This document shows, one piece after another, positions 3,335 through 55,359 of a DNA stretch of 55,559 nucleotides. Positions within the stretch are counted from its first letter, which is position 1. Each line of letters starts with the position of its first letter. A program made the position numbers and the translations under genes. The stretch is taken from positions 1-55,559 of the IMG/VR virus record IMGVR_UViG_3300042293_000428. One strand, given 5' to 3'. This DNA is from a virus. Lineage: Duplodnaviria > Caudoviricetes. The notes under the pieces are model-generated. The model did not search any database and was not told the origin of the DNA. It saw nothing but the letters and a program-made list of their open reading frames with translations.

Positions 3335-3399
3335 CAAATATAAATTTTATTTATTACATATTAAAACAACTAAAAATTATATTCTTCATAATATAGCAT
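3335..3399 (-). promoter_or_regulatory. Lysis-cassette promoter (-7 TATATTTG at 3342-3335) with upstream GCTATATTAT box (3397-3388)
   Basis: TAnnTTTG match; the same box recurs at 4055 and 55348. Confidence 0.6.
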
Positions 3400-3450
3400 A
3401 AATGAAAATTATTTTTTAGTAATCAATTTCTATATTATTTGTTATTTAAT

Positions 3451-3975
3451 TTACCAAGCTGTTAATGCTGTTCTTCTCCAAGTGTTTGCTGCTATGCAAA
3501 CATATATGAAACCAGCTGTATATCTAATCTCTCCGAGTATTCCTGTTGATGTTGATGTTGCAGGAGCTGGGTTTAAATTAGAAATTGTGTATTGTCCTGC
3601 TTGAATATTATCCGCCAAAATTGGACAATTAAGATTAAAACTTCCAGCTTCAACAGTAATATCACCACTAAAATCATTTATTTCAATAGAAGTAGATCCA
3701 ACTGCTAATATAAGTACATCTCCATCACCACTTATATTAGATGTTATTATACCTCCAGTAAAGCTAATTGTTTTATTAGTAGTCGCTCCAACATCTGTAA
3801 CAGATTGTAAATCTGGAGCAGAAAAATTACTTAAAGAATAATTTATTTTTTCTAAAGCAGTTTGTATACTGTCATTTGTGTTTACTCCTATATATAATAA
3901 ATTAGCCCCTTCGTAAAATACGCAGGTAGAATTTAATATAACAGGACACGGTGTGGCTGAGCAAAGTACATTCAT
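3451..3975 (-). CDS. Short fibre-like protein sharing both terminal domains with the 42872..46951 tail spike
   Basis: N-terminal CVFYEGANL..G.NTNDSIQTALEKI and C-terminal GEIRYTAGFIYVC..NTW.R.ALT.W align with the termini of the spike. Confidence 0.75.
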   Translation of the reverse strand: MNVLCSATPCPVILNSTCVFYEGANLLYIGVNTNDSIQTALEKINYSLSNFSAPDLQSVTDVGATTNKTISFTGGIITSNISGDGDVLILAVGSTSIEINDFSGDITVEAGSFNLNCPILADNIQAGQYTISNLNPAPATSTSTGILGEIRYTAGFIYVCIAANTWRRTALTAW

Positions 3976-4001
3976 AATGTAAGTAGTGTATTAGTAATTT
4001 G

Positions 4002-4064
4002 TAAAAATAATATTTATAAGGTTGATATCAAACTGTTATAAAAAATAACTAACTATAATATAGC
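4002..4064 (-). promoter_or_regulatory. Promoter TTTG-N19-TATTTTTA with upstream GCTATATTAT box (4064-4055)
   Basis: Bacteroidota -33/-7 spacing with a variant -7 element; box lies at the same distance as at 3388. Confidence 0.5.
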
Positions 4065-4068
4065 GTTG

Positions 4069-7000
4069 TTATCTTCTACTTTCTTTTTGAATTGTTATGT
4101 CAAATTCTTTAGCAAACTCAGAATCAAGTATTGCTCCATATGTCAACAATGATTTTGTTACAGGTAACATCTTAGCTAAATATTTAATAGGTTTTGCTTT
4201 TTCTCTAACTTCTTCTGAAGATAATGATGGGTCAAATAATTCAAAGCCTAATACTTGGCTAGAAAAATGAGACATGAATTTTATTACATCTGAAAAAAGT
4301 CCTATAGCAGGAAACATTGATCCTTCTAAAATTTTCTCTGCTTCTAATGGATTATAAAAGAATGAAAGTTCCCCAACAAATTTATCTACAACTCTTTGAG
4401 AAAATCTATAAAAGTTTTTAGTTGCTATATCATCATCATCATCGTCAGGAGCTAATAGTCCCATAGATAATTTTAAACCAAACAAAACAAGTAACATTGT
4501 TAATTCCTGGACCTGATTTTTTAAATTTGTTTTAATCATGTCATTGAAATCTTCTTTTGTCATAGTAAATTTTTCACCTGTTCTTTTTTGATAAGCTTGT
4601 GCATAGTCTAAATACATTTTATCTAATAAAAGAATACCTTTATCATTAACTTGTAATATATTTAAAACATTAAAACTTTTATCTTGAACAGAAGAAATCA
4701 ATACTCCCCACCAAAGTCTAACTCTACCAATATCATATTTCTCTCCTTCAGTTAAACCATCGTCATCTATTGTTACAGAAAAATCATCTGATATTTTTCT
4801 CAATTCTCCAAAACGTGTATCAACAAGTTTAGGAATCCAGTTCTTAAATACCATCATAGATCTTCCCCAAACACTCATTGACATTCTATTTATGTCAGAA
4901 TCTGACATACCTCCAGTTGCATTTCTAGAAATACGTCTACTAAGTTTTGTAACTCTATCTATTTCTTTATAGTTGTTTAAATCAAAACCAGGAATGACAA
5001 GTTTATCATTTTCCAACTTCATTGTATTAGTTATAGAACTTGTATTTTTTAATTCTATAATTTCATCTTCTATCTTTTTAGAATCTCTTGCATAATCACT
5101 TGCAGAATTATATCTATCTTTATATTTATTTTTTACAAACTCTCTAATGTTAACAATTTTTCCATCAATAATCATTGAGTTATCTAATAATGTCATAAAA
5201 ATAGATTTCTCAACATGTTGTTCAGGTTCTCTCATAAACACCATTAACCAATCAGAAAAATTTTGTTGAGTTATTTTTGATAACCCTGCTTCTTTTAATT
5301 TATCATATGTAGGATCATCTTTAAGTGGCATGAAAGTATCTATTAATTGTAAAAACATTTTACGATCATCATTGTCCTTAAATTTACTACCTATTAAACC
5401 ATTAAAGTTTTTAAAATAATCCCATTTAGTAAAATAGTTACCTGCTTGTGTAATCACCTGAATGTTTGCACCAAATAAATTCACTGCTCCTGATATAATA
5501 TCTAACCCTAATGTTTTTAATTGAAAAGTTCTATTTAGAGTATCCATAGATTTGAACAAAGAAGTGGCACTAGGTTTATCTAAATCTGTAAAAACTTCTT
5601 TACCTGCAACACCATTTATAATTTTTTTCATTTGTTTCATGATACCTGTACTTATAGAAGTATCTGTATCAGAAAGAGGATATTTTTGTTCATATAGTAG
5701 AGCTCTTAGAAAATCATCAAACATTTTAGTGTTTTGTTCATTTCCTTCTAATTCTTCTGGCTTACCGTTAGGTTTTAGTATAACATCTCCTGATCTTGTT
5801 GTAGCTAAATGTTTTTTAAAGCCTTCTACAGTTTTAATAAGCTGTGCTTGTCCTTCTACTTCAGAAAGATATTTGTAGTTATGCATATGATTTATATATA
5901 AAATCATATTCTTGAAAAGATCTTCACTTACATCTGTGTAATCATGTATAGTATTACCTGCTTCATCTTTGCTCATTGAAAAATCTGAAGTGTAATACTT
6001 TGGTATACTATGTTCTATCTCTCCAGTTAATTCATTTACATTACCAAAACCAATATCATCTGCTTGTAAAGATAATCCATTACCAAAATTCATTACAGAA
6101 GAAAGAGAAAAATCCCAAGCAAGACTTTCAGCCATTGATTTTCTTACAAATGGTAAAAATGTAGAATGAACTTTATTCTCTAAGTATCCAATATCAGCTG
6201 ATTTCTTGTTTGTTTTAATTAGGAAGTTATATAAATCAAACAGCTCTTTATCATTTTGAATATTTTTATATTCATCTGTTAACCATGGAGAAGATTCAAT
6301 TCCATTTTTATCTATAGACTTTAGAGGATGTCTTTTAATAATATAATTATTCCATCCTGTAAAATCATTTCTAGTAACGTCAAGCATTCTCTTTTCTTGA
6401 AGAATAAGTTTGGCCATCATTTCTTTATCTTCAGAATAAATTCTTTTAATTCTTTCTATTCTTTTTTCTAAAACTTCTTTTGCTTCTTTTAGATAACCTT
6501 CTCTATCTAAATTATTGTATAACCATTCTTTACTAGGAGATTCTTCAGCAGCATTTTTATCAACTAAATCATAAAATTCTTTTTTATATTTATATATAAT
6601 TTTATTAACTAATTTATTCTTGTCATCTTTTTGATATAACTGTTGTACATACTTTCTAACATCTCCTCCTTTATCAGTTATTCTTTTTCTAATAGACATT
6701 AACTCTTCAACTTCTTTTAATGCATCTCTTCTAGCTCTACCTTTAGCATTTGTAACTAATTTAAATAATATACTAACAGAAGGTAGAGGAACTTCTGAAG
6801 CTCCTCTAAAAAAAGAACCTATTCCAGACCAAACAGCTTGTGGAGATAACAAACCTTGTACAAGATTTCTTTCTCCCATAAACTTATCTGCAAATTTTCC
6901 AGTAATGTCTTCTACTTTTTTAGAAGATAAACGAATAAGTTTTGCTTCACTATCTATACTTTCTAAATAAGTTTTACGTTTAGCTAAATCTTCTTTTTGT

Positions 7001-9507
7001 TTATCAGTTTTAGCATTCTTTATTTCAGATTTATCATATATTAAATTTCCTATCAAATCATTCATAGAACCAAACACTTTTGATATAGCCATATATTCCC
7101 TAAGACTATCTGCATATTCAGAAAGTTGTACATCATTTATATCATCAGTAGAAGCTGTTTTTTTATTGTAAATTGTTTCCCAATCATTAATAAGATTTTG
7201 TCCTTCCTTTCTCATCAATTTAATTACTTGAATCAATGGAACAAGATTATTAGCACTTTGTGCAGCACGAATAGCTTTAGAAATAGCATTCATCCTCTCA
7301 CCTTTAAATCTTTTATCATCTTCGTTGGTAACCTCTTCTTTTCCTACTTGCTTCAACACTGCATTTAATTGTGCAATGGCTTCATCTAATTCCTCATTCC
7401 CAGTTGATTCAGTTTCTTCTGAAACAGGAACTAATGTAAAATCTTTTATATTACCAACATTTACAGAACCAATTTCAATTCCTTTAACTATTAAATCAGA
7501 ATCTGGATTTCTCCAGTTCTTACGTTTAACATCCATTAATATAGGAATAGCTCGCATTTGTCCAAACTCTTTTACTCCATAAGAGTCTCTTAATATATCT
7601 TTATATCTACCAAGTTGTATATTATATGCTCCTTGTTTATACCAAGCTACATCTTCTGCAGTGGCAGATACAGTCATAAACTTCCAATCAAATATATTAG
7701 CCTTACCATTTTCCTCTATTATTAAAAGGTCAATAGTTCCAGCTTCTTGTTCTTTAGGATCATATACAACTACTTCTGAAAATACCAAAGGATTCTTCTT
7801 ACCTTCAGAAAACTTTTTAACTAAATCAACATAGTATTGTTCAAGTCTTTCATAAACTTCTTCATCAGGACCAATCAGATCTATAGTTCTAGAAATAGGA
7901 GTTTCTCTTCTAGTTCCATCTTCTTTAAAATATCTATTATGTACATCTTCGAAATAGAAATGATACTTTATACCATGATCTCTTTTAAAGTCATTGATGA
8001 ACTCTTCTTCTTTAGTAAACTTTTTATTCTTTCCAAATCTTTGTTCATACCAAGCCTTCACTCTATCAGTTACACGTTTGGTGATTCTTCTTTCGTTACC
8101 AGTAGTTTCTAATTCTACATAATAATTAGATGCTTCTTCGCTATCTGCTAATAGAGGATCAACTTTTTCAGAAGATTCTCTTTTTTTAATTCTATCTTTT
8201 GTATCAAGAATACTTTGTTGTAATTCTTTTTGTTTATCAGATAATTTAGATTCTCCTTTTTTAAAGAATACACCTTCTCCTTGAAATTCAACAGGAGCAG
8301 ATTCCATGAAAGTTTTAAATCCTTCTATATCTTGTTTACTGCCTAATACATATATTTGTGAAGTATCTCTAACTACATATTGTGTTTCTAGACCTCCTAA
8401 TGGATCTTTAATGTTTAATCCTATAATACCATCGCCTCCTCTGTTAGTTTCTGTTTCTGTGTAATTTACACCATCTAAAACAACAGGGTTCTCTAAGTTA
8501 ATAACAGCAGCAACTAATTGCGGATTAGCTTCTTCTTCAGGAGCATTTAGTAATCTATTAGTAGCATCCCAATCAGCATATCTAGAAGCAGTTAAATCAT
8601 CACTAAAATAAACTCTCCCATCTCTAGGAGTTAATGATTCTAGTTTAGTAGCAGAACCTGTTCCATGGTAAACAATTTGTTCAACTTTACTATTAGGGAA
8701 TATTCTATCTATGTACATAGAATATTGTTCCTGTGTTCCTATGTTTGCTAGTTCAGGATTTTGTTCAAATATAAAATCTAACCCTTCTTGTTTACGAGCA
8801 TAAGACATTCCTATATCTCCAGAGATAATTTTAGAAGTTGCTTTTTCAAATATATCTATGTTAGCTTTTCTATATCTTCCTGAGAAGAAATCAAGGATAG
8901 CATTCCATATTTTTTGAACCATTGTTCTAGGAAGTTCTTCCATTAGTTCAGGAAACTCTACAGAGCCTTCAGATTGATTGATAATAAGCTCAACTATAAG
9001 TTTATCTACAGCTTCTTTTTTAATCTTTCTAATATTAGGTTTTCCATTAGGTAATTGATAGTTCTTATCATCTCTATAAGCTTCAAGCACTTTGTTATAG
9101 ATAGCAAACCTATCTATTTTAGAAATCATTTCTGTTACAAACTTTGGTTCTAATTTTTCTATCATAGCTGTAGCAATGTGCACCATCTCCTCTGTAAGAG
9201 TAACATCTTCTTTTCCTTCAGCAATAGCAATAATTCCTTTTACAAGATCTGCTAAACCATTTAAATCAGTTGCTTTCACATCAGGATTCCCTTTTAGATA
9301 ATCTTGAAGATCTTGCATCTTGACACCCATTTTAGCAATGAGTGCCTTCACTTTATTTAAAGTTTCTTCTGATGCCTTAGATGATAGAAGTTCTTGTTTA
9401 GGAACATTTCCTTCATAGGTATCCCACAAGTAGTAAGCTAAATCCTCTCCTTTTGATGCTACTAATAATTTCCAAGCTTCTGTATTCTTATTTGGACATG
9501 TTGCCAT
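4069..9507 (-). CDS. Large virion cargo/polyvalent protein: zincin-like, ADP-ribosyltransferase-like and PD-(D/E)XK nuclease domains with a helical C-terminus
   Basis: EEMVH; IVYHGT...VYFS...Y...DGII...QYVV (ART pattern); SE...AGTIDLL...IFDWKF...QL..Y (PD-(D/E)XK); directly follows the vRNAP gene, as in crAss-like genomes. Confidence 0.8.
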   Translation of the reverse strand: MATCPNKNTEAWKLLVASKGEDLAYYLWDTYEGNVPKQELLSSKASEETLNKVKALIAKMGVKMQDLQDYLKGNPDVKATDLNGLADLVKGIIAIAEGKEDVTLTEEMVHIATAMIEKLEPKFVTEMISKIDRFAIYNKVLEAYRDDKNYQLPNGKPNIRKIKKEAVDKLIVELIINQSEGSVEFPELMEELPRTMVQKIWNAILDFFSGRYRKANIDIFEKATSKIISGDIGMSYARKQEGLDFIFEQNPELANIGTQEQYSMYIDRIFPNSKVEQIVYHGTGSATKLESLTPRDGRVYFSDDLTASRYADWDATNRLLNAPEEEANPQLVAAVINLENPVVLDGVNYTETETNRGGDGIIGLNIKDPLGGLETQYVVRDTSQIYVLGSKQDIEGFKTFMESAPVEFQGEGVFFKKGESKLSDKQKELQQSILDTKDRIKKRESSEKVDPLLADSEEASNYYVELETTGNERRITKRVTDRVKAWYEQRFGKNKKFTKEEEFINDFKRDHGIKYHFYFEDVHNRYFKEDGTRRETPISRTIDLIGPDEEVYERLEQYYVDLVKKFSEGKKNPLVFSEVVVYDPKEQEAGTIDLLIIEENGKANIFDWKFMTVSATAEDVAWYKQGAYNIQLGRYKDILRDSYGVKEFGQMRAIPILMDVKRKNWRNPDSDLIVKGIEIGSVNVGNIKDFTLVPVSEETESTGNEELDEAIAQLNAVLKQVGKEEVTNEDDKRFKGERMNAISKAIRAAQSANNLVPLIQVIKLMRKEGQNLINDWETIYNKKTASTDDINDVQLSEYADSLREYMAISKVFGSMNDLIGNLIYDKSEIKNAKTDKQKEDLAKRKTYLESIDSEAKLIRLSSKKVEDITGKFADKFMGERNLVQGLLSPQAVWSGIGSFFRGASEVPLPSVSILFKLVTNAKGRARRDALKEVEELMSIRKRITDKGGDVRKYVQQLYQKDDKNKLVNKIIYKYKKEFYDLVDKNAAEESPSKEWLYNNLDREGYLKEAKEVLEKRIERIKRIYSEDKEMMAKLILQEKRMLDVTRNDFTGWNNYIIKRHPLKSIDKNGIESSPWLTDEYKNIQNDKELFDLYNFLIKTNKKSADIGYLENKVHSTFLPFVRKSMAESLAWDFSLSSVMNFGNGLSLQADDIGFGNVNELTGEIEHSIPKYYTSDFSMSKDEAGNTIHDYTDVSEDLFKNMILYINHMHNYKYLSEVEGQAQLIKTVEGFKKHLATTRSGDVILKPNGKPEELEGNEQNTKMFDDFLRALLYEQKYPLSDTDTSISTGIMKQMKKIINGVAGKEVFTDLDKPSATSLFKSMDTLNRTFQLKTLGLDIISGAVNLFGANIQVITQAGNYFTKWDYFKNFNGLIGSKFKDNDDRKMFLQLIDTFMPLKDDPTYDKLKEAGLSKITQQNFSDWLMVFMREPEQHVEKSIFMTLLDNSMIIDGKIVNIREFVKNKYKDRYNSASDYARDSKKIEDEIIELKNTSSITNTMKLENDKLVIPGFDLNNYKEIDRVTKLSRRISRNATGGMSDSDINRMSMSVWGRSMMVFKNWIPKLVDTRFGELRKISDDFSVTIDDDGLTEGEKYDIGRVRLWWGVLISSVQDKSFNVLNILQVNDKGILLLDKMYLDYAQAYQKRTGEKFTMTKEDFNDMIKTNLKNQVQELTMLLVLFGLKLSMGLLAPDDDDDDIATKNFYRFSQRVVDKFVGELSFFYNPLEAEKILEGSMFPAIGLFSDVIKFMSHFSSQVLGFELFDPSLSSEEVREKAKPIKYLAKMLPVTKSLLTYGAILDSEFAKEFDITIQKESRR

Positions 9508-9510
9508 AAC

Positions 9511-25491: not shown

Positions 25492-25570
25492 CAAATGTAA
25501 TATGAATTATTAGAACTACCAAAATTAATAATCAATTCTGGTAATTCTTTATAATTAAATTAGTTATAAA
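25492..25570 (-). promoter_or_regulatory. Promoter TTTG-N20-TACATTTG with upstream 27-bp palindromic site (25544-25570)
   Basis: Perfect Bacteroidota consensus; the 27-bp site is 25/27 identical to 41983-42009. Confidence 0.75.
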
Positions 25571-37776: not shown

Positions 37777-37781
37777 AATTA

Positions 37782-39394: not shown

Positions 39395-39417
39395 ATTAAT
39401 TAATTTTAAATTATATA

Positions 39418-39449
39418 CAAATATAAATCATTTATAAGACAATACCAAA
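39418..39449 (-). promoter_or_regulatory. Promoter TTTG-N20-TATATTTG for the HNH gene and downstream tail genes
   Basis: Exact Bacteroidota -33/-7 consensus, about 24 nt upstream of the ATG at 39394. Confidence 0.75.
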
Positions 39450-39465
39450 AATAAAACTTTTTATT

Positions 39466-39942: not shown

Positions 39943-39946
39943 GAAT

Positions 39947-40675: not shown

Positions 40676-40678
40676 AAT

Positions 40679-41902: not shown

Positions 41903-41930
41903 ATGTAGTGTAATTTACTTAAAATTAGGG

Positions 41931-42009
41931 TAAAGATAAAAATAGTTTTCATACTATCCAAATAAATTTAATTAAATAGATTATTCTTTATAACTAAAAT
42001 AGTTATAAA
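41931..42009 (-). promoter_or_regulatory. Promoter TTTG-N20-TATCTTTA with upstream 27-bp palindromic site (41983-42009)
   Basis: -33/-7 spacing of 20; perfect inverted repeat TTTATAACTA-N3-TAGTTATAAA. Confidence 0.65.
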
Positions 42010-42039
42010 ACAAAAACCTCCTAAGAATATCTTAAGAGG
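42007..42039 (-). terminator. Intrinsic terminator after the tail accessory genes
   Basis: CCTCTTAAGA-tat-TCTTAGGAGG stem (one G-U pair) followed by TTTTTGTTTT. Confidence 0.75.
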
Positions 42040-42076
42040 AAAACATAGAAAACCAACAAACTATGATTTTTTTATA

Positions 42077-42859
42077 TTATAATATTATTGTTGTAGTAGT
42101 AGTTGTAGTGGGACATGCTCTAATTGAATACCACGCTGTACCAGCAGAACCCCCAGTAGCTCTGATTGTAGCTATAGGATTAATTAAATAATCTGCAGAT
42201 GTGTATTTCCACCATACAATTTGATCATAAGTCACACCACTTATAGTCATATTAGGAATATCATATCCTGTATCAATAGTAAATTCTGATTGTCTTGTAG
42301 GAGCAACTCCTTTATTAGTTCCTATAAATTGATCTACTGGTAAATTTGGATCATTTGGTAACAAATTATCAGGAGGAGTTCCCCAAATATTATCAAATAC
42401 ATTATTATTAGTTGTAGCAGTCATAGAAGTTGTAGACTTTTTGTTTACTCCTCCATTTTCTGGAAGTCCATGATAAATCTCTAGTTTATCAACTTGTCCT
42501 AGTGGATCAAAAAGAAAAGTAATAACTCCACCATCTGGATCTAAATTAACGTATTGATCTTTCAATTCAAGTCCTCCAGAATCAGTAGTTCCTTCACAAG
42601 GAACACTTGGAACAAGTGTTGTAGTGGTGGTAGTTGTAGTTCCTACTAATGTAATATCTATATAGTTTACACAATCCCCTGTAGACTTAACTCTAATAAT
42701 AGTTGCAAAATCTGGGACTGCGGAAGAAGCATACCCTGCAAGTAATGCAGATTTGCTTACTCCTGTTGCAAATGCTGATACATATCCATCAAGATTTGTA
42801 TATAAATCAAAGGGTCCTGAATCTGCCCCTGCTGTTGTTAATGTTATTAATACTGTCAT
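42077..42859 (-). CDS. Putative virion decoration protein: adaptor domain, poly-Thr, beta domain, poly-Thr
   Basis: N-terminal GPF...GVSK..L..G...I.VKS.GDC domain shared with 31739..32605; T8 and T7 runs. Confidence 0.6.
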   Translation of the reverse strand: MTVLITLTTAGADSGPFDLYTNLDGYVSAFATGVSKSALLAGYASSAVPDFATIIRVKSTGDCVNYIDITLVGTTTTTTTTLVPSVPCEGTTDSGGLELKDQYVNLDPDGGVITFLFDPLGQVDKLEIYHGLPENGGVNKKSTTSMTATTNNNVFDNIWGTPPDNLLPNDPNLPVDQFIGTNKGVAPTRQSEFTIDTGYDIPNMTISGVTYDQIVWWKYTSADYLINPIATIRATGGSAGTAWYSIRACPTTTTTTTIIL

Positions 42860-42871
42860 GTTGGTTTATTT

Positions 42872-46951: not shown

Positions 46952-46952
46952 A

Positions 46953-48065
46953 TTATAAAGGTATATAAATTATGTAATAAAGAGAAATAACTGGTTGAAT
47001 ATTTGAATGAGGTAGTCCACCTCCTGTAGATGATATAGTTACAGGATGTGTATGTATACCATTAGCTGTGGTTAATCCTGCTGTTCCTTCAAGAGTATCA
47101 CTAATATATGGAGTTTCTGCATATAAAGTACCTGTACCAGCACTCCCATACTTTGTATTATGAGTATGTTCTCCTGCAGCAACTGTAGCTCCTAAATGAG
47201 TATGTGCAGGAAGTTGCGTTTCATTTAAAGTAACTTGATTTGCTCCAAATGTAGTAATACCTTTTGCATTATAATCAGGGTTACCATTAAGTCCTGGTTG
47301 AGTTTGTGATGGAAAACTTGCATTAAGCATTGATGTAACTCCTACAGGAACTCGTCCTCTTAAATCTGGTGTTGAATTTAATCCATTACATAAAAATATT
47401 CTGTCCCAATCTCCTGTTCCTGCACCTGTACCATTAAAATGTGATAAATCTCCATAATAAGGAAGAATAGAATAAGGAACCATTTTAGAACTAACTAATG
47501 TAGAAGTTCCTGTACTAGCTAAATATGCAGCAATGTAATTATTTAAAGGTTCTCCTTTAGGTACATAATTTGTTTCAAGGTCAAGTGCAAGAGCAACTAA
47601 ATCAACTTGTATTGCACAAACTTTATTTATTACAGCTTGTACAATAGCATGTGTATCTGAAGAAGCAGTTACACCTGTTAAGCATGGTGTAAATGTTGGA
47701 CTAGGACCTATTGGTATTGTATAATCAGCATTTAATATTGCAAGCTCTGCATCAATTGCATCAACTTGTTCTTGAAGATCACAAGCAGCTTGTACAAGTG
47801 CTTTTGATATATCTACAATTGTTAAATCTCCACAAGTTGGAAGATATTTCTGTACAACAGTACATACATCTATATTACCAAGATCTATTTTTATCCCAGT
47901 TCCATTCAATGTAGAAAGAAGAAAAGAAATCAAAGCTTGTTCTACAAATGATAATGTATCACCTGTTTGAATTCCTAATGTAGGAATATTTATTCCTGTA
48001 TATTTTACACATCTGTCAGAGACAATCTCTGTACATCCGTTGTAACAATTTGTGCAATTAGACAT
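46953..48065 (-). CDS. Tail fibre protein with phage tail-collar domain
   Basis: FLCNG..STPDLRGRVPVG, LPAHTH, AGEHTH, GIHTH, GGGLPHSNIQP...YYII; Cys-rich N-terminus. Confidence 0.85.
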   Translation of the reverse strand: MSNCTNCYNGCTEIVSDRCVKYTGINIPTLGIQTGDTLSFVEQALISFLLSTLNGTGIKIDLGNIDVCTVVQKYLPTCGDLTIVDISKALVQAACDLQEQVDAIDAELAILNADYTIPIGPSPTFTPCLTGVTASSDTHAIVQAVINKVCAIQVDLVALALDLETNYVPKGEPLNNYIAAYLASTGTSTLVSSKMVPYSILPYYGDLSHFNGTGAGTGDWDRIFLCNGLNSTPDLRGRVPVGVTSMLNASFPSQTQPGLNGNPDYNAKGITTFGANQVTLNETQLPAHTHLGATVAAGEHTHNTKYGSAGTGTLYAETPYISDTLEGTAGLTTANGIHTHPVTISSTGGGLPHSNIQPVISLYYIIYIPL

Positions 48066-48077
48066 ATTATATTTATT

Positions 48078-48425
48078 TTATAGTGTTGTTGTTGGACAAG
48101 GAGTAGTAGTAGTGGTTGTTGTCACTCTCACTTCAGGTGTAAATACAGGAGCAATTGTACAACCTGCAGTTAATATATTAACTCTACTTGTAATTTTTTT
48201 TATAGATACATCACACATGTAATCATGATTACATTGTTTATATGTAAGTATTCTTTTATATGTTATTAATCGAATCATTGCACCAGCTGGTACAGATTGA
48301 TTTAACATATATGTAATATTATTATATAGACCATTAGCATATTCTGCTAACTTACAATCTATTGATTTAAGTAAATTAGGAATATCTGTACAGTTGATAC
48401 AATTATTTAGTCTAGGTAATAGCAT
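48078..48425 (-). CDS. Small Cys-containing structural protein with poly-Thr tail
   Basis: Start MLLPRL at 48425 preferred, 4 nt after the stop of the 29-aa ORF; C-terminal TTTTTTTPCPTTTL. Confidence 0.65.
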   Translation of the reverse strand: MLLPRLNNCINCTDIPNLLKSIDCKLAEYANGLYNNITYMLNQSVPAGAMIRLITYKRILTYKQCNHDYMCDVSIKKITSRVNILTAGCTIAPVFTPEVRVTTTTTTTPCPTTTL

Positions 48426-48429
48426 ATTA

Positions 48430-48519
48430 TTATTTTTTAGCTGCGCATGCTGCACATAATCCATTTTTTAACTGACATCCACACCCCACATTTGCTCCAC
48501 ACCCATTACATTGTGCCAT
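48430..48519 (-). CDS. 29-aa six-cysteine peptide MAQCNGCGANVGCGCQLKNGLCAACAAKK; not in the ORF track
   Basis: ATG at 48519-48517, 2 nt after the upstream TAA; TAA at 48432-48430; fills the intergenic gap exactly. Confidence 0.75.
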   Translation of the reverse strand: MAQCNGCGANVGCGCQLKNGLCAACAAKK

Positions 48520-48521
48520 AA

Positions 48522-49085
48522 TTAATAAAAGTTTAATTGATAATTATTTCCTGAACATCCACAGTTAGATTTTAAAAAATTATCTAACATATTATTTGCT
48601 TGTGTATATAATTTATTTGATTCATATTCTGCACAATTATTAGCTGCAGCAATTGAACCTTGTATAAAGAAATTAATTGTATTTAATGTTACGCTAGATT
48701 GAGTTTTAATAGCCCTATCACATTCAATTAAATCTAATTGAAGGAAAGCTCTATCAAACTTTTCTTGTATTCTCTCCGTACGCATTATTGTTTTATCTAC
48801 ATAATTTATATATGCAGGTGTAATAGAATATCTTAACTTATATATTCCATCAGGTAATGGTTGATCAACCCCAACTTCTGTAATTCCTAAACTTGCTGAA
48901 TTAAATAAATTAAAATCATTAACAACAAAAGGAAGAATAGCTAAACCAAAATTTGGAACAGTTATTTCAATTGTAGGAGCAACAACAAGAGGTGGATCAT
49001 CAGGATAAGTAGACGCATCAGCTATCCCTAAAGTTAAAACATTATATGTTGGAAGTACTAATATATCTAATTTTAAATCTGCCAT
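48522..49085 (-). CDS. Putative tail hub / collar protein
   Basis: 187 aa; Ig-like N-terminal half with LPDGIY, helical Cys-bearing C-terminal half; position after the auxiliary capsid gene. Confidence 0.55.
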   Translation of the reverse strand: MADLKLDILVLPTYNVLTLGIADASTYPDDPPLVVAPTIEITVPNFGLAILPFVVNDFNLFNSASLGITEVGVDQPLPDGIYKLRYSITPAYINYVDKTIMRTERIQEKFDRAFLQLDLIECDRAIKTQSSVTLNTINFFIQGSIAAANNCAEYESNKLYTQANNMLDNFLKSNCGCSGNNYQLNFY

Positions 49086-49107
49086 TATTATTTTTTAAAA
49101 GATTAAT

Positions 49108-49141
49108 AAAAAAAAGGAGAGAGTTTTACTTCTCTCCTTTT
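49108..49141 (-). terminator. Intrinsic terminator after the auxiliary capsid gene
   Basis: AAAAGGAGAGA-N8-TCTCTCCTTTT followed by a T run. Confidence 0.8.
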
Positions 49142-49170
49142 AATATTAGGAATTTATATTTCTACTATTC

Positions 49171-50334
49171 TTACGGTATTTGTGTAGATGTAGTAGTTGT
49201 AGTTGAAGGAGCAACAGTACTAGTAGTGGTAGTTGTAGTGATACAAGCATTACCATTAACTAAAGTTCCTAAAGCAGCTTCTAATACATTTTCAATAAGT
49301 CCACCAATTGGATTAGAAGTACCACCAACTTGAGTTTGTGGAGCAGCAATGATCACTGTTGAATCTTCCATGATGTAATCACCCCACTGATAAGCAGACT
49401 TATCAAGTTCGTTGAACTTAATATAATAAGTATCATAAGTAACTCCACTTGAAACATAAGTTTCAAAGTTCTCATTATACCCATTCATTCTGTAAAGGTG
49501 TTTCAAGTAACCAGCTTGGTAGCTATAGAAGTTTTTCTCTAGTTGAGCAATTTCTCCTGATTGTCCTGTTGGATAAGAAGAACGTTGAGTGATTACAGAG
49601 TTAGCAACAATGTTACAGCTATCAGCAACAATAAAGTCAGCAGTAGTAGCTGGACCAGAATATACAAAAGTTCTGAAAGACATTCTGTCATATTCAAAAG
49701 GGAAAGCAGCAACATCACATGGTTGACCATATTTTGTTAAAGGTTTTCCAGTAATACGTAAAATAGTACCACCTACATTTTCAAATGTATAGAATGTGTT
49801 GAAGCTAATGTTATCAGGATTGATACCAGGAGCTTGTGCACGTAATTTTGTAATCAATTGATTAATTAATGCATTATCATCAACGTCAACACATACATCA
49901 CCACCACACTCACAACAAGGAGCTTGAATAGTTACTGAGCGAGTGAATCCATTGAAATACAATGTATCAATATAAGAAGAATGTGCACGCAATGTTAATG
50001 TAAGTGTGTCTCCACATTGTACAGAAAAATTAGTTACATCAGTAATTTGATTAGCTGCTGTTGGGCAACCAATTACTTTATACCATTCAGATACATTAGA
50101 TCCATTAGAAGCAATTCTATCAGATCTTTTAGATGCTTGAAGGTAAGTGTTTTCTCTACCTTGTGCAACGTAGAAATAAGGTTTAGCAGCAATATTAGCA
50201 ACAGTTGCTAATGAATAATCGCTTCTAAATACACCCACTCTACCTGCAGTCAGGTCTTGGGTTGAACCAGAGCTAGGAAGAGTAGTCTGTCCTACTGGAA
50301 CCACGAATAACGTGGTTAATGAAAAATCAGCCAT
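49171..50334 (-). CDS. Putative auxiliary capsid (decoration) protein with Thr-rich tail
   Basis: 387 aa; third gene after the MCP; followed by a terminator; C-ending codon preference like the MCP, suggesting high expression. Confidence 0.6.
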   Translation of the reverse strand: MADFSLTTLFVVPVGQTTLPSSGSTQDLTAGRVGVFRSDYSLATVANIAAKPYFYVAQGRENTYLQASKRSDRIASNGSNVSEWYKVIGCPTAANQITDVTNFSVQCGDTLTLTLRAHSSYIDTLYFNGFTRSVTIQAPCCECGGDVCVDVDDNALINQLITKLRAQAPGINPDNISFNTFYTFENVGGTILRITGKPLTKYGQPCDVAAFPFEYDRMSFRTFVYSGPATTADFIVADSCNIVANSVITQRSSYPTGQSGEIAQLEKNFYSYQAGYLKHLYRMNGYNENFETYVSSGVTYDTYYIKFNELDKSAYQWGDYIMEDSTVIIAAPQTQVGGTSNPIGGLIENVLEAALGTLVNGNACITTTTTTSTVAPSTTTTTSTQIP

Positions 50335-50358
50335 TTTTTATTTATTTAAATTAATAGT

Positions 50359-51090
50359 TTATTCGTTTGTTTGTATTCTGAATTGTGCATTTTGTACAGC
50401 AGATTGATTTTCAGTATACATTGCTAGATTTTGAACTGTTAAATCTAAAAGTTCATCTTCTAAGTATGTTTCAAGCTCACAGTCTTGATCAAATGATGGT
50501 TCACCATCTAACATTATATATCCTGTTTTATTAATGTAAAGAGGATATCGCATGTACATTATTTGTAAATTCTTAGGGGTAAAGGTACCATCAGTAAATA
50601 TACTTATTTCATCAGATGCAAGAAAGTTAAATGTTTCTTGATATTCAAATGATGGTTTGTAATGTTCATTATTTAATATGAATTGAAGATCACCGTGTTT
50701 AGCAAGATCTCTATTAATCCATATCTTTCTATCTTTACATCTTCCTTTGTCAGCTAATGCATAACTGTCAACGTAAAACATATATTTTGGTTCAAGCGTA
50801 TGAAGATTAGCAGCCCATTGATTCAAATCAGCATCCTTTAATGTTAAAGGAAGTGGTTGGTGATTATAGTTCATTACAAGACTTTGTAAATCTTCATAAC
50901 GCTTTTTAAATGAATCTTGTCCTAATCCACTAGCAGTACTTATACCATCAATTTTCTGTTTTATTAATTTGATCTGAGCTTCATTCAAAGCTAATATCTT
51001 ATCTTCTAATTGAATTTGTTGATGTGCATTAGTTGACAGTTTATTCAGTCTTTGATCTACTTTATACAATAAACTATCTACTGGTATCAT
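50359..51090 (-). CDS. Conserved crAss-like capsid-block protein, putative ring protein
   Basis: LNEAQ...KRYEDLQ.L...Y.RYP...CEL pattern; gene order. Confidence 0.6.
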   Translation of the reverse strand: MIPVDSLLYKVDQRLNKLSTNAHQQIQLEDKILALNEAQIKLIKQKIDGISTASGLGQDSFKKRYEDLQSLVMNYNHQPLPLTLKDADLNQWAANLHTLEPKYMFYVDSYALADKGRCKDRKIWINRDLAKHGDLQFILNNEHYKPSFEYQETFNFLASDEISIFTDGTFTPKNLQIMYMRYPLYINKTGYIMLDGEPSFDQDCELETYLEDELLDLTVQNLAMYTENQSAVQNAQFRIQTNE

Positions 51091-51117
51091 ATGCTTTTAT
51101 ATTATTAAACTAACTGC

Positions 51118-52086
51118 TTAAATAGCAGCTAGTTTTTTAGTTTTTAGTTTTCCTTCTAATATTAATAACTCATCTTGGTTATCATCATCAGCTAAGAATC
51201 TAATTAAATCATCTTCATCTTTTGCCACTTCATACTCACCTTCATAAACCTTACCGTTAGGTTTGATTCTATACACTGAATGTGCTGTAGCTTGTTTAAC
51301 TAAATCTTTAATATGGAGTAAGTCATCTTTCATTGTAGCAAATCTATTGAACACTTCAACTGGATTTAATCCTGAATATTTACCATTCTTAAATTCTGTT
51401 TGTTTCAATACGTTATCTACTTGATTGTAAACAACTTCTTCTTTGGTTTCTTCTGTTACTGGAAGACCTAAAAGTCTTGCAACTTTTTTCTTCTTATCAG
51501 GAGTCATTGAATCAAACATAACAATTGCTTTATTAATCAATTGTTTTTTCTTATATATTACAGCATTCTCAATCTCATCATCTACAACATAGAACTGTGT
51601 CTCTGCTGGATACTCACCTCTTTCCCAAGCTTGGTGAGAAGATGCAATTGTAGGATGTACTCTTAACCATGAAAAGGCTAGTTCTTGAAATGGAACTGAT
51701 AAATCATAATAATTATCACCATCCATTAGTTTAACAGATTGAACATGTGTTTGATCATCTGTAGAAGTAGAAAGTCCATAGTTCCAAAATTGTGAACGAG
51801 GTCCTAAATCAATATCACCTAACTCATACTCAAGTTTTTCTTTAAGTTTAGTAACTCTCTCGATTTCTAACTCTTTTTCTAGAGGATCTGAAATTCTTCT
51901 GATGTATGAAGCAGTAGGATCTAATCCTGTTCTGTACTTACCATCTAATTCTTTATAAGGATATTTGAATACTCCTGTTCCAGGGATTCTTGTCATTCCT
52001 TTTTGTGCTAGTCCACTATCCATTGTCTGAAGTTGTGTACTACTGAACTCTCTCTTTATAGTAGAGATTTTTCCTATTTTTGCCAT
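51118..52086 (-). CDS. Conserved crAss-like protein immediately downstream of the MCP, function unknown
   Basis: 322 aa, A-rich leader; gene order of the crAss capsid block. Confidence 0.6.
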   Translation of the reverse strand: MAKIGKISTIKREFSSTQLQTMDSGLAQKGMTRIPGTGVFKYPYKELDGKYRTGLDPTASYIRRISDPLEKELEIERVTKLKEKLEYELGDIDLGPRSQFWNYGLSTSTDDQTHVQSVKLMDGDNYYDLSVPFQELAFSWLRVHPTIASSHQAWERGEYPAETQFYVVDDEIENAVIYKKKQLINKAIVMFDSMTPDKKKKVARLLGLPVTEETKEEVVYNQVDNVLKQTEFKNGKYSGLNPVEVFNRFATMKDDLLHIKDLVKQATAHSVYRIKPNGKVYEGEYEVAKDEDDLIRFLADDDNQDELLILEGKLKTKKLAAI

Positions 52087-52121
52087 AATGTAGTTTAATT
52101 AATTGTTTTGGTTTATTTTAG

Positions 52122-52192
52122 TTGCGGATTAAGGACTCGAACCTTGCCATTGGGTTATGAGCCCGATATGCTACCAATTACACTAAACCGCC
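52122..52192 (-). tRNA. tRNA-Met(CAT), initiator-like, with several stem mismatches
   Basis: GGCGGTT-TA-GTGT AATTGGTA GCAT-A-TCGGG CTCATAA CCCAA-TGG-CAAGG TTCGAGT CCTTA-ATCCGCA-A; three G-C pairs in the anticodon stem; 1:72 mismatch; no encoded CCA. Confidence 0.8.
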
Positions 52193-52196
52193 TTGC

Positions 52197-52396
52197 AGAG
52201 TGTTCCAATTGAATGGAATGCGACTGTGGACACCACAATCCATCACTCTTAGACTGTCCAAACTAAATCCTGCTTTCGCTGTCTAGATATTGTTCTGTCT
52301 ATATTTGAGATCAATCCCCTCTAGGAGGGAGAGGAGTTGAGGGGATCTTTCTCGGAAAAAAGAGATGCATGCTGTTCTATAACGGGAAGCAATGCA
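52197..52396 (-). ncRNA. Candidate structured RNA (four consecutive stem-loop domains) between the MCP gene and the tRNA
   Basis: GC-enriched, no ORF; pairings found by eye at 52396-52366, 52353-52307, 52285-52250 and 52249-52197. Confidence 0.55.
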
Positions 52397-52409
52397 ACTA
52401 CTGTTATTT

Positions 52410-53975
52410 TTAGAATTGTGGGATTTCCTCAATCAACACAGTTCTTGACAAATCTTCGATAAATACATCACATCTGTCTTTCATCCAGATTTCGTATCCT
52501 GGGAATTTGTTAGCACTTGACATACCTTGAGATTTAGCAAAACCTAAGTGATGACGAGTTCCATCAATATAACCCCAAGTCATAGAAGGAGCACCTTTCA
52601 TACGTACTTCTCTAATGTTATTCACCATAGAACCATCACCCATTGGAGAAACATCAAACACCATAAATACAGGAGTAGATTTTTTGTTTTGTCCAAACTC
52701 TAGGTTAGTTTGTGGTAAATCTAATTCTTTTAAGTGAATCAATTCAACACGACCAGTCTCACGTGTAACCATTGCATCAAATGCAAAGTTGTAAGTGATG
52801 TGTTGTCCTTCACCTTGCATATATCTGTTTCCAGAATCTGCCATAAATGTAAGACCAGAGTTTAATGCATCTGTTTTCAAAGCTTGTTGGAATACATCGA
52901 ATCCAGCTTCATTAGTGTACATTTTAACACGTCTGTCTTTTACATCCACTCTTCTGTAGAACAAATCTCCAAAAACTGAACGAATCAAGTTAGCAGAGAA
53001 TTCACCTCTGTTGTATTGAACAAGGTTACCGTTGTTACGCATTCTGTGATAAACACCAGCAGATGTACGTTTAACTTCTTGTTTAGAACCATTAGTTTTA
53101 ACTGTACCTGGTTTAGCCCAAATCATACGTTTAACTTTAAGCTCAAGCATAGATTTACGCATCCAGAACTCAATGAACGGTTCCCATTTAACATCGTTAC
53201 GAGTAAGTGGCAATTGGTTACGTCTTTGTGGAGCATATACCAAGATGTCAAGAGATTTACCTGAAGCATCTTTCATCATTTTGTCATCAGCCCATTCAGT
53301 GATTTTGTGCTCATATCCATATGCAGAACCTAATGATTCAAACATTGTAATTTGCTCACCCAAACGAGGAAGACCTAATAAGTCTTGATCAAATTCTCCA
53401 ATTGCAGCATCAACTAATTCTAGTTCAATACCATGTTGCAAGAACAAAGGATTAACAAAATCAACAGTTGGGTTATCAGTCACAAGAGTGAATGAATACA
53501 AGAATCCCATGTTCCATGGTAAAGGATCTTTAACAACATAGAAACGTGGACCATACTGACGAGTACCTACAGATACGATAGCATTTTTAGAGAATTCATT
53601 AGTATCTAATACTAATTGAAATTCTTGACCATCAATACCAACTTTACCAGAACCAGAAAGGATGTCTGTTGTGAAGTTAGGAACATCAATAATTTTTGGG
53701 AATTTGTAAGGAACTGCTACTTGCCATTTCCATGCATCACTATTATTATCAATGTAATAAGGTGTGCTTTTGTTGATCATGTCCAAGAAGTCGTTACTAT
53801 ACAATGAGCTCTGTGTATATAAAGAGATGATCTTTTTATCATAATCAGCAGGCTCAGTAGAGTGAAAACTCTCTAAGTGATTTGAGTCTGTAAGTTTACC
53901 AACCGCACGTTTGTCCATAGACGCTACACGTGCATACGTAAAACCTGTTAACCCAGGGATTGTTTGTAATGCCAT
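52410..53975 (-). CDS. Major capsid protein (crAss-like, HK97 fold)
   Basis: 521 aa; LTDSNHL, MYTNEAG..VFQ, V.LIHL..LD motifs; strong codon bias; portal-scaffold-MCP gene order. Confidence 0.88.
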   Translation of the reverse strand: MALQTIPGLTGFTYARVASMDKRAVGKLTDSNHLESFHSTEPADYDKKIISLYTQSSLYSNDFLDMINKSTPYYIDNNSDAWKWQVAVPYKFPKIIDVPNFTTDILSGSGKVGIDGQEFQLVLDTNEFSKNAIVSVGTRQYGPRFYVVKDPLPWNMGFLYSFTLVTDNPTVDFVNPLFLQHGIELELVDAAIGEFDQDLLGLPRLGEQITMFESLGSAYGYEHKITEWADDKMMKDASGKSLDILVYAPQRRNQLPLTRNDVKWEPFIEFWMRKSMLELKVKRMIWAKPGTVKTNGSKQEVKRTSAGVYHRMRNNGNLVQYNRGEFSANLIRSVFGDLFYRRVDVKDRRVKMYTNEAGFDVFQQALKTDALNSGLTFMADSGNRYMQGEGQHITYNFAFDAMVTRETGRVELIHLKELDLPQTNLEFGQNKKSTPVFMVFDVSPMGDGSMVNNIREVRMKGAPSMTWGYIDGTRHHLGFAKSQGMSSANKFPGYEIWMKDRCDVFIEDLSRTVLIEEIPQF

Positions 53976-54003
53976 TTTATTTAAATTTATTAATTATTAA
54001 TTG

Positions 54004-55251
54004 TTATGAAAACCATGATTTTGGATTAGAACCACCAGTGGCTCCAGTTGTTTTAGCTTTAGTAACTTGTCTTGCAACTTCTCCAAACAGTTCATTAGAT
54101 TTTTTCGTAACACCTGTTCTTTGTATGGTTGATAATGTAGGATCTTTTTCTAACATTTTTAAAAGAAGACCTATTTTAACTTTCTGTGCGTGATTCTCTG
54201 GTCTTTTTAAATCCAATATGGCACGATCAAAATCAGTTAAAGTTTCTCCTGAAGGAGTTTTCCACTTATCAACTAATAAGAAGTCTTGTAGTTCTGTTGC
54301 TAATTTTGGATTGATAGGGATACCATCAAACTCTTTTGCTTTCACCTTATCTTGTAAGATGGTTTGCACATTATTTATGTACTGATTTCTGACTTGAGCT
54401 TTTTGTTGTAACTCAGCTTCAGACTTAGATTCTAGATCTTGTAACTTTGCTGCTTCTTTTTTAACCAATACTTTATGGTTTCTAGTAGCAACACTTTCTA
54501 AATCACCGTAATTTTTTAATCTTTCGATTTCTGTTTCTATATCTTCTGATTCAAATCCTTGATTAGTTAATGCTTGTTTCATTATTCTAACTTGGTTATT
54601 CTCATCAGATAAATCCATTTCAGCAAATCCAACAACATTATTATATGTAGTGAAATATTCTTTAGGATTAACTCCTTTTACAAATATGGCATCAAAAGCT
54701 TCTTGGTAATCTTCTCCAAATTGTCCTATGAAATTTTGAACAATTTCACTAGCACCTTTTTTCTTTTCATCATTGAATCTTTCTAGAAACTCTTCTGCAG
54801 TGTTTACTGGTTCTTGCTCATCATCATCAGATGTAAATACACCTAATTTATATAAGTCATTAGCAAGTGCAGTGAATTGTGTTCCTTGTGGTTCATCATC
54901 TGCTTCCTCAGTATTATTAATACTTGCAGATTTTGCAAGTTTTAATACTGGAGCATCTTCTTCTTCTTCATCATCACTATCACTTAGGAAATCAGAAATC
55001 ATTGATTGCCCTTCTAGTTTTTCTTCATCTGTTTTACCATCAACGTTTTTAGGAGGAACTATATCCTTACCTTTTGGTACATCTGGTTTAGCAGGTGCAG
55101 TAGGAGGAGTTGCTTCATCAATGATAGCGGTAACATCTTCTGGATTAGAAGTTGATGTTTCAGGAGAATATAAGTCATTTAATAGTTCCTGGTTGCCCAT
55201 TCCCATTTCCATAGTACCCTGGATACTAAAGTTATCTAAATTATCAGCCAT
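54004..55251 (-). CDS. Acidic protein upstream of the MCP, putative scaffold/assembly protein
   Basis: Disordered Asp/Glu/Pro-rich N-terminus, coiled-coil C-terminal half; lies between portal and MCP. Confidence 0.65.
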   Translation of the reverse strand: MADNLDNFSIQGTMEMGMGNQELLNDLYSPETSTSNPEDVTAIIDEATPPTAPAKPDVPKGKDIVPPKNVDGKTDEEKLEGQSMISDFLSDSDDEEEEDAPVLKLAKSASINNTEEADDEPQGTQFTALANDLYKLGVFTSDDDEQEPVNTAEEFLERFNDEKKKGASEIVQNFIGQFGEDYQEAFDAIFVKGVNPKEYFTTYNNVVGFAEMDLSDENNQVRIMKQALTNQGFESEDIETEIERLKNYGDLESVATRNHKVLVKKEAAKLQDLESKSEAELQQKAQVRNQYINNVQTILQDKVKAKEFDGIPINPKLATELQDFLLVDKWKTPSGETLTDFDRAILDLKRPENHAQKVKIGLLLKMLEKDPTLSTIQRTGVTKKSNELFGEVARQVTKAKTTGATGGSNPKSWFS

Positions 55252-55284
55252 ATGTAGTTGTATTTTTGTTTGGTTTATTTAGTG

Positions 55285-55359
55285 TAAATGTATAATAAGA
55301 GTTTCTAATATCAAAGTGTTATGAGTCAATGTGATCCAATTTTCTTGATAATATAGCAT
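55285..55359 (-). promoter_or_regulatory. Capsid operon promoter TTTG-N19-TACATTTA with upstream GCTATATTAT box (55357-55348)
   Basis: -33/-7 spacing; third copy of the box. Confidence 0.6.

Follow-up and report, generated by a model that had tools for sequence, protein, structure and literature searches.

Three operons of a crAss-like phage carry the same ten-base word, GCTATATTAT (the class A box), ahead of their promoters, which raises the question of what this word does there. The stretch of DNA analysed (the window, 55,559 nt) shows crAss-like traits, with ORFs of 4457 and 1812 aa and a gene order as in phage phi14:2, and its complete relative G001 has Pfam matches to Crass_capsid, CrAss_Ring_1, CrAss_Ring_2 and crAss_MUZ. 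Searching both strands of the window, we found three exact matches of GCTATATTAT, all on the minus (coding) strand and all three in gaps between genes (3328-3450, 3976-4068 and 55252-55394). The box of site I (55348..55357, minus strand; extended TTAATGCTATATTATCAAGAA) lies 5' of the capsid operon, that of site II (4055..4064, minus strand) starts 4 bases past the stop codon of the 1812-aa gene (4069-9507), and that of site III (3388..3397, minus strand; TTTATGCTATATTATGAAGAA) lies 5' of the lysis cassette. These are the three intergenic positions reported in a preliminary description of the window, which also noted that two copies can be extended: those at 3388 and 55348 indeed carry the longer form ATGCTATATTAT[G/C]AAGAA, from which the copy at 4055 differs by reading AACGCTATATTATAGTTAG.

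Judged post hoc and from the window by itself, the repeat is weak evidence. Dinucleotide shuffles (n = 100) held 0.45 copies of GCTATATTAT on average, and none of the 100 reached 3. When the 14 intergenic segments were simulated with a Markov-1 model, 244 of 2000 runs (12%) had some 10-mer in three or more segments, and three low-complexity A/T 10-mers likewise reach 3 in the real segments. With one mismatch allowed, the count rose to 19 against 11.07 expected (1 of 100 shuffles reached 19); the 16 one-mismatch copies were mostly in coding DNA, 12 of them on the non-coding-sense strand. What we regard as decisive, from sequence comparison, is the behaviour of the box in relatives: near-invariant conservation, fixed spacing and restriction to non-coding DNA.

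Downstream of each box we located a core promoter of the Bacteroidota type. The published consensus, T-12 A-11 T-8 T-7 T-6 G-5 (PMC6847099, in the part available), is matched by the core elements of the window, which follow TAnnTTTG without G at -10/-9, two of the three ending in A rather than G. At site I, the T of the -7 element (55285..55292, minus strand; TACATTTA) is 65 nt past the first base of the box, and the -33 TTTG (55312..55315, minus strand) lies inside CACTTTGATATT. The -7 element of site II (4002..4009, minus strand; TATTTTTA) follows the first box base by 55 nt, with the -33 TTTG (4029..4032, minus strand) inside CAGTTTGATATC. That of site III (3335..3342, minus strand; TATATTTG) is also 55 nt past the first box base and only 7 nt from the ATG; here the -33 TTTG, expected some 18-21 nt ahead of the -7 element and present at the other two sites, is absent. 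Counted in coordinates from the last base of the box, the -7 elements lie 46, 46 and 56 away, the same values as described before, which leaves 45, 45 and 55 nt of spacer. With the T of TA set as T-12 and the transcriptional start site (TSS) placed accordingly, the boxes would be centred at -62.5 or -61.5 (sites II and III) and -72.5 (site I). The preliminary description had stressed that these core promoters deviate from the consensus; this is true but does not discriminate, because promoters of the window without the box depart from it as well, and a weak core is therefore not specific to box promoters. Of 30 window genes, just 1 carries a Shine-Dalgarno-like tetramer. Judged by eye, a G+C-rich hairpin (55370..55390, minus strand; CTTCTCCTC-TTCG-GAGGAGAA) without a T-run on the coding strand separates the box of site I from the gene before it; many relatives have compensatory variants of it, likewise judged by eye.

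The assignment of these promoters to lysis, a fibre and the capsid operon was supported by gene matches. The capsid operon begins with a 415-aa gene (54004..55251, minus strand) directly before the major capsid gene (52410-53975; PHROG major head protein), the position held by g092 in phi14:2. The equivalence is one of position only: BLASTP similarity to g092 was not significant, as was the case for the positional counterparts in phi14:2. Site II precedes a gene for a 174-aa tail or fibre-like protein (3451..3975, minus strand), the C-terminus of which matches phrog_17312 (tail protein). Downstream of site III (1666..3327, minus strand) lie ORFs of 118, 206 and 90 aa and then a 138-aa endolysin-like protein (1666-2082; matches to phrog_17001 and phrog_2649, endolysin). 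Box-bearing promoters thus serve the genes for capsid, fibre and lysis, to which complete relatives add the packaging operon; gene function, together with the gene order common to phi14:2, suggests that these operons are expressed late. Two promoters of the same module, 5' of the virion-polymerase block (25.5 kb) and 5' of the metallophosphatase and tail-ring genes (42.0 kb), lack the box; at 49-50 nt from the -7 element they have another sequence instead, a palindrome of 21 bp.

Relatives were homologous IMG/VR loci sampled from many different metagenomes. At site I, the 9-mer was kept in 80/80 loci, with 59-86% identity in the downstream protein, and CTTTGATATT was conserved at the -33 element; the box was kept in 26 of the 28 loci examined for site II and in 55 of 60 for site III. 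Over the relatives the consensus is ATGCTATATTATg, with GCTATATTAT as its core, and a logo of 164 unique sites showed an asymmetric box between freely diverging flanks and spacers. Between box start and the -7 TA, the distance at site I was 65 nt in 62 and 66 nt in 1 of 63 unique sequences; at site II it was 54 nt in 12 and 55 nt in 5 (17 unique sequences), and at site III 55 nt in 35 and 54 nt in 3, with no -7 element in the remaining 4 (42 unique). The 10-nt difference between sites, one helical turn as had been proposed, is therefore retained throughout the family. Leader lengths, counted from the -7 element to the ATG, ranged over 29-62 nt at site I and 33-113 nt at site III, whereas the spacing between box and -7 element is fixed; indels are therefore tolerated in the leader but not between box and -7 element. 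In the window and six complete relatives (740 kb, 8% of it non-coding, 4.46 copies expected overall), all 22 exact copies were in non-coding DNA, with none in about 681 kb of coding DNA. Two outcomes that the preliminary description had named as fatal to its proposal, a word equally frequent in coding DNA and a word not conserved in relatives, are rejected by these counts. The box is thus strongly conserved and constrained in position, kept in helical phase at a set distance 5' of sigma-A core promoters of the Bacteroidota type (-33 TTTG / -7 TAnnTTTG).

One clade (L182, L183, L184, L191 and G008) departs from this arrangement at site III. There a good sigma-A-type promoter precedes the box by 36-37 nt, and a hairpin with compensatory changes and then a terminator come directly after the box; a -7 element at 54-65 nt is absent. 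In this clade the box cannot serve to activate the lysis genes from upstream. In two further members, L166 and L207, it is missing entirely.

In complete relatives there is a fourth copy (site IV), inverted and 40-43 or 50-53 nt ahead of the promoter of the packaging operon, which runs from a winged-helix gene through terminase to portal; it was present in 61 of 69 loci. The gap between the inverted box and the -7 element is bimodal, 40-42 nt in 21 and 50-53 nt in 29 of 50 unique sequences, with modes one helical turn apart, and the box centre falls at about -59 or -68 to -70 in T-12 numbering. Forward (-62, -72) and inverted (-59, -68 to -70) centres agree only with a 3' shift of about 2 bp, which is an ad hoc assumption. 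In the leftward direction, site IV opens the early module, with 230-760 nt of conserved non-coding DNA beyond it. The first gene 3' of the inverted copy encodes a conserved 129-aa winged-helix protein.

Taken together, the patterns in these sequences indicate that the box is probably the operator of a trans-acting late activator that works with the host sigma-A polymerase. A protein made earlier in infection would bind the box sequence-specifically and aid host RNA polymerase at core promoters that are individually imperfect, contacting the polymerase from upstream as class I activators do from -61.5 or -71.5. The four box promoters would then fire together as a late regulon for packaging, capsid, fibre and lysis. 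The 129-aa winged-helix protein is one candidate for the activator; if it binds the box, it would be autoregulated. The positions of the TSSs, the binding of a protein, the sign of regulation and the identity of the protein are what we infer in this proposal.

The alternative that survives best, although an unlikely one, takes the box itself as a core promoter element with the TSS a few bases downstream, read by a phage-directed enzyme (a new or virion RNA polymerase, a phage sigma-like factor or a modified host polymerase), and takes the TAnnTTTG promoters 55 or 65 nt further on as separate tandem promoters of host type. The asymmetry of the box is consistent with this, as is its direction, the same as that of the downstream genes at sites I-III and in the G008-type clade. 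Two of the three window copies hold TGCTATATT, which resembles an extended -10 element, and in T, A, T and T the box agrees with 4 of the 6 fixed -7 positions. In the G008-type clade, a box without a downstream -7 element and next to a covarying hairpin is what a 5'-terminal stem-loop would look like, and the leftward reading of site IV, at the early module and its conserved non-coding DNA, also fits. However, independent tandem promoters give no reason for a fixed distance of 54-55 or 65 nt in more than 120 unique sequences, and the 10-nt bimodality of site IV relative to the rightward promoter is equally unexplained; by eye, no -33-like element was seen at the right distance 5' of the box. 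In phi14:2, according to the available part of a preprint (bioRxiv 10.1101/2020.03.07.982082), middle and late transcription is severely inhibited by rifampicin and early transcripts have no common upstream motif, both of which argue against such an enzyme; the in vitro tests with host polymerase in the same source covered only the middle promoters P070 and P075, which leaves this alternative some room.

With a smaller chance, the box binds something other than an activator: a repressor or timer that keeps late promoters silent, a phage IHF/HU-like architectural bender, or a conserved host factor co-opted by the phage. Its position and conservation fit this as they fit an activator, a fixed face of the helix is also compatible with a bending protein, and an IHF-like gene is annotated in this module of crAss-like phages (phi14:2 g073); a very conserved host factor would suit the invariance of the box across many metagenomes. 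Operators of repressors, however, typically overlap the core promoter rather than lying at -62 or -72, and by eye the box does not fit the IHF consensus (WATCAANNNNTTR).

Improbable, in our estimate, is a composite site in which the box is the promoter word of a phage-directed machine and the host-type -33/-7 elements downstream are part of the same site. The machine would be the crAss virion-type RNA polymerase, remade in mid-infection, or a phage sigma-like factor, and it would recognise the word both where the early module begins (site IV leftwards) and at the late operons. If true, this would give the first defined promoter for crAss-like virion polymerases and contradict the idea that unmodified host polymerase transcribes the late genes. 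Action after initiation, as a promoter-proximal pause or antiterminator loading site or as a leader RNA element for late read-through, is very improbable: the order in the G008-type clade (sigma-A-type promoter, box at about +25 to +34, covarying hairpin, T-run hairpin, lysis genes) recalls lambdoid late-gene control, and partial likeness to the -7 element is seen in sigma-dependent pause sites, but the box is upstream of the promoter in the great majority of loci, points, at site IV, against the operon to which its spacing is phased, and is followed by no terminator at sites I-III of the window.

Cellulophaga phage phi14:2 offers a parallel to the proposed activator site. In its 100 kb, TAAACGCTATTAAAA is present exactly twice, 5' of g092 and g093, each copy 68 nt before TATATTTG with unrelated spacers, and both genes are listed as late proteins in the available text (bioRxiv 10.1101/2020.03.07.982082). 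The phi14:2 box, ACGCTATTAAAA, is a possible counterpart of the class A box, and phi14:2 is the one cultured marine model. The same preprint, in the part available, covers 126 middle/late promoters of crAss-like phages and gives an 'extended tripartite' motif for phi14:2 middle promoters. These are promoters for host polymerase in which a third block joins the -35/-10-like ones; the two core blocks are present in the promoters here as well. Such promoters are also reported 5' of gp092 and gp093 homologues, in positions that match site I. The motif was defined on the middle promoters g070, g075, g108 and g110, in which we found neither GCTATATTAT nor ACGCTATTAAAA, and the available text describes no late-specific upstream box. 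A residual chance stays that the published third block and the class A box overlap. The remark in the preliminary description that such a site was not known for crAss-like phages holds for a late-specific box in that text, but a tripartite middle motif is in print. The published work on phi14:2 and crAss001, in the text available, attributes middle and late transcription to host polymerase and does not name the switch.

The box offers a testable handle on this middle-to-late switch of crAss-like phages. The promoters with the ten-base word are exactly those of packaging, capsid, fibre and lysis, and the neighbouring virion-polymerase and tail-ring promoters carry a putative second, palindromic class of operator. 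As an activator site, the box would be among the first position-defined upstream activating sites for Bacteroidota -33/-7 promoters, and it could possibly be used for calling late regulons in uncultured crAss-like genomes.

Mu C/Mor and P2 Ogr/P4 Delta are small phage proteins that activate several late operons through a common upstream sequence with host polymerase, and the analogy first drawn with Mu C and P2 Ogr stands at this functional level. It does not extend to the sites or the proteins: those sites are dyad-symmetric and lie at or beside the -35 region (about -30 to -55), whereas the class A box is asymmetric, without a dyad, and separated from the -7 element by 45 or 55 nt, and no Mor/C or Ogr/Delta domain was detected in 132 of the 137 ORFs of G001 (Pfam, E<=1e-3). 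The T4 MotA box is likewise a phage-specific asymmetric word with TGCT for one temporal class of promoters, and it replaces the -35 element, centred near -30. The class A box does not fit a MotA-type middle promoter, being centred at -62 or -72 with the -33 TTTG retained at sites I and II; the MotA structures 1bja and 6k4y were among the fold matches, and that fold match is generic. The marbox of MarA, SoxS and Rob is an asymmetric upstream site that works in either orientation at distance-dependent positions, and the class A box shares with it an asymmetric site upstream of the core in either orientation; no AraC-family protein was found in the G001 proteome (Pfam, 132/137 ORFs). CRP-type class I activators have sites at -61.5 or -71.5. 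Unlike these, the class A box is non-palindromic and its core is of the Bacteroidota -33/-7 type, but like them it lies near -62 and -72, one helical turn apart, with strict spacing, a free spacer sequence and an imperfect core.

The class A upstream box, the 10-mer GCTATATTAT, occurs three times in the window, always intergenic and on the coding strand (55348-55357, 4055-4064 and 3388-3397), respectively upstream of the capsid operon (site I), a fibre gene (site II) and the lysis cassette (site III). Shuffled sequences held 0.45 copies on average, and 0 of 100 reached three. The extended form of the box and the offsets of 46, 46 and 56 nt to the -7 elements, as given in the preliminary description, proved exact when the sequence was read again. 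The window by itself is not decisive for the box, since 244 of the 2000 intergenic sets simulated contained some 10-mer common to three segments, and three A/T-only words are also common to three segments in the real window. TTATnAAGAA was tried as a wider shared motif and set aside (6 matches against 3.77 expected, not significant).

Megablast of window positions 3000-9000 against GenBank phages gave no match, and tblastn with the capsid protein found a cyanophage at 25% identity as its sole match; all close relatives were therefore taken from IMG/VR. Upstream of the capsid operon, the first nine bases of the box were present in 80 of 80 loci, with downstream proteins 59-86% identical; the exact 10-mer was kept in 73 of these, and the other seven differed in the last base only. 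The 9-mer was also found in 55 of 60 loci upstream of the lysis cassette and in 26 of 28 upstream of the fibre gene, the latter being those of 61 returned loci that matched the conserved N-terminus. Spacing here means the distance between the box's first base and the T of the -7 element. At site I it was 65 nt in 62 of 63 unique sequences and 66 nt in the remaining one. At site III it was 55 nt in 35, 54 nt in 3 and absent in 4 of 42 unique sequences, and at site II, of 17 unique sequences, 12 had 54 nt and the other 5 had 55 nt. The sequence of this spacer often could not be aligned among relatives. The adjoining leader ranged over 29-62 nt at site I and 33-113 nt at site III while the distance from box to -7 element stayed fixed, so that length is conserved between these two elements only.

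In the window and six complete genomes (740 kb, non-coding share 8%), all 22 exact copies of the box were non-coding, with about 4.5 expected overall. None lay in the roughly 681 kb of coding DNA, where composition predicted about four, which hints that the word is avoided in coding DNA, where it would do harm. The box is real and strongly selected, and its geometry links it to the Bacteroidota-type core promoters that serve late functions.

All 30 long ORFs of the window are on the minus strand, among them those for the major head protein (52410-53975) and an endolysin-like protein (1666-2082); other virion structural and tail proteins are encoded as well, and two ORFs reach 4457 and 1812 aa. 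The gene order is that of Cellulophaga phage phi14:2. Genomes of the relatives measure about 113 kb, of which the record covers 55.6 kb, and one complete relative gave Pfam matches to Crass_capsid, CrAss_Ring_1, CrAss_Ring_2, crAss_MUZ and a P22-type portal. A Shine-Dalgarno-like tetramer precedes 1 of the 30 window genes, and TTTG...TAnnTTTG pairs are present in intergenic regions; scarcity of the former and presence of the latter are hallmarks of Bacteroidota expression signals, according to PMC6847099. The start context ACTACAT(T)ATG recurs at three genes (55249-55258, 52084-52094 and 41900-41909, minus strand), and AAACCAA and AACTACATATG are also kept in the site I leader across the 80 relatives. 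These words may form a translation-initiation context for a host without Shine-Dalgarno pairing. In distant genomes, GCCATATTAT was considered as a variant of the box and rejected, since most of its occurrences are the start context ATAATATGGC in reverse complement; the genomes bearing it keep GCTATATTAT at sites I and II. Homing-endonuclease genes lie within the lysis and tail gene strings (GIY-YIG, 1058-1669; HNH, 38753-39394), the HNH gene having its own -33/-7 promoter at 39418-39446. A tRNA-Met (52121-52192) was the sole match in an Rfam scan of the window; the G+C-richer non-coding stretch of about 217 nt upstream of it, between the capsid gene and the next gene (52193-52409), matched no Rfam family.

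The -7 element of Flavobacterium spans T-12 to G-5 (PMC6847099). On this numbering, with start sites inferred, forward boxes are centred at -62.5 or -61.5 (fibre, lysis) and -72.5 (capsid), and inverted boxes, found before the packaging operon of complete relatives, at about -59 and -68 to -70. Class I activators such as CRP act from positions like these. Forward and inverted centres lie 3-4 bp apart, and would agree only if the true site reaches a few bases 3' of the 10-mer. Two promoters of the window lack the box, one before the virion-polymerase block (25.5 kb) and one before the metallophosphatase and tail-ring genes (42.0 kb). Both carry the class B element, a 21-bp palindrome TTATAACTAnTTTAnTTATAA (minus strand; 25549-25569 and 41988-42008) that ends 49 nt ahead of the -7 element, and six complete relatives keep it at the homologous promoters with compensatory variants such as GTAATTA-ATT-TAATTAC. 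The palindrome probably serves as operator for a different temporal class. It marks genes whose positional counterparts in phi14:2 are middle genes; genes for packaging, capsid, fibre and lysis are marked by the box. Since the palindrome stands at the box-free promoters with its centre near -72, two operator classes seem to use the same promoter position within the module.

For phi14:2, bioRxiv 10.1101/2020.03.07.982082 reports that middle and late transcription is rifampicin-sensitive, that the middle genes g070, g075, g108 and g110 are preceded by an 'extended tripartite motif', and that similar motifs precede homologues of the late gp092 and gp093 in other crAss-like phages. In the 100-kb phi14:2 genome (NC_021806), TAAACGCTATTAAAA occurs exactly twice, directly after the stop codons that precede g092 and g093 (minus strand; 86787-86797 and 89244-89254); each copy is 68 nt before TATATTTG, across unrelated spacers, and none was found at the four middle promoters. 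Judged on these two copies, TAAACGCTATTAAAA may correspond to the box in a crAss-like phage that is in culture. An IMG/VR search for relatives of g092 returned three distant loci with matches beginning at residue 94, and distant blastn in GenBank found no close relative of phi14:2. BLASTP of the window's proteins at the g092 and g075 positions against phi14:2 was not significant (E 0.33 and 0.60); their equivalence is positional only.

Complete relatives hold four copies of the box. The fourth (site IV) is about 7.2 kb upstream of site I, outside the window, where the leftward early/replication module and a rightward operon diverge. This operon starts with a 129-aa gene, continues with small ORFs and extends to terminase and portal. 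The site IV box is inverted relative to it; among 72 loci retrieved, 61 of 69 usable ones had the inverted 9-mer. Of 50 unique sequences, 21 have 40-42 nt and 29 have 50-53 nt between the inverted box and the rightward TATCTTTG or TATATTTG element, two classes one helical turn apart, as among the forward sites. Leftward of site IV, at the head of the early module, 230-760 nt are free of ORFs (about 83640-83870 in the complete relative G001; also in G002, G005, G006 and G008), and contain TTTCTCTATAGATGTATA, which is conserved, and a C-rich run, CCCAACCACCACCCCAAAGGTA, that is unusual for a genome with about 30% G+C. The early module of phi14:2 has long, highly transcribed non-coding regions (bioRxiv 10.1101/2020.03.07.982082).

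Directly downstream of site IV, the 129-aa gene encodes a conserved protein (mean column identity 76% over 42 distinct sequences). Its predicted fold is a helical bundle with a beta-hairpin wing (mean pLDDT 81.6), HTH_Mga scored weakly and below the cut-off (E 2.8e-4), and Foldseek gave only weak matches (E at least 0.05) to MarR-, Fur- and MotA-type domains. It matched no PHROG family and no PDB sequence significantly, the best being a sigma region 4 fragment (E 0.24). It is a plausible candidate DNA binder and no more; a search for co-variation between box and protein found none. No sigma, Mor/C or Ogr/Delta family member appeared among 132 of the 137 ORFs of a complete relative.

One marine metatranscriptome (X1) contained relatives at 85-99% identity, covering those of the capsid region (window 40000-55559) with high word depth, as contigs only and so without transcript starts, ends or expression level. 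Three further runs yielded next to nothing.

In our moderately confident reading, the box most likely works as an upstream operator, bound by a trans-acting factor that would activate host polymerase at late promoters. The main reason for not rating the activator higher is one clade (L182, L183, L184, L191 and G008), in which, as read in the upstream 400 nt of the four loci, a good TTTG...TAGATT(T/C)G promoter precedes the site III box by 36-37 nt; the box is also 70 nt beyond a reverse-strand promoter. The latter overlaps the first promoter back to back. The order is consensus -33/-7 promoter, box (G008:C1:8815-8824), hairpin, second hairpin with T-run, lysis genes; the hairpin directly after the box shows compensatory changes, and the terminator comes next, ahead of the lysis genes. 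L166 and L207, of the same clade, lack the box. Such a layout suits two of the main rivals, in which the box would be a stand-alone promoter for a phage-directed enzyme or a post-initiation control element. Binding by a protein that does not activate is the other main rival. An IHF-type site is dismissed, as the box, compared by eye, does not fit the IHF consensus.

In the literature searched, we found no late-promoter box of this type described for crAss-like phages, and the papers listed for the literal 10-mer were unrelated. The lysis leader of the deviating clade recalls the layout of late genes under antitermination control. An operator for phage late genes, placed upstream of promoters of the host type as favoured here, is of a general kind that is already well known.
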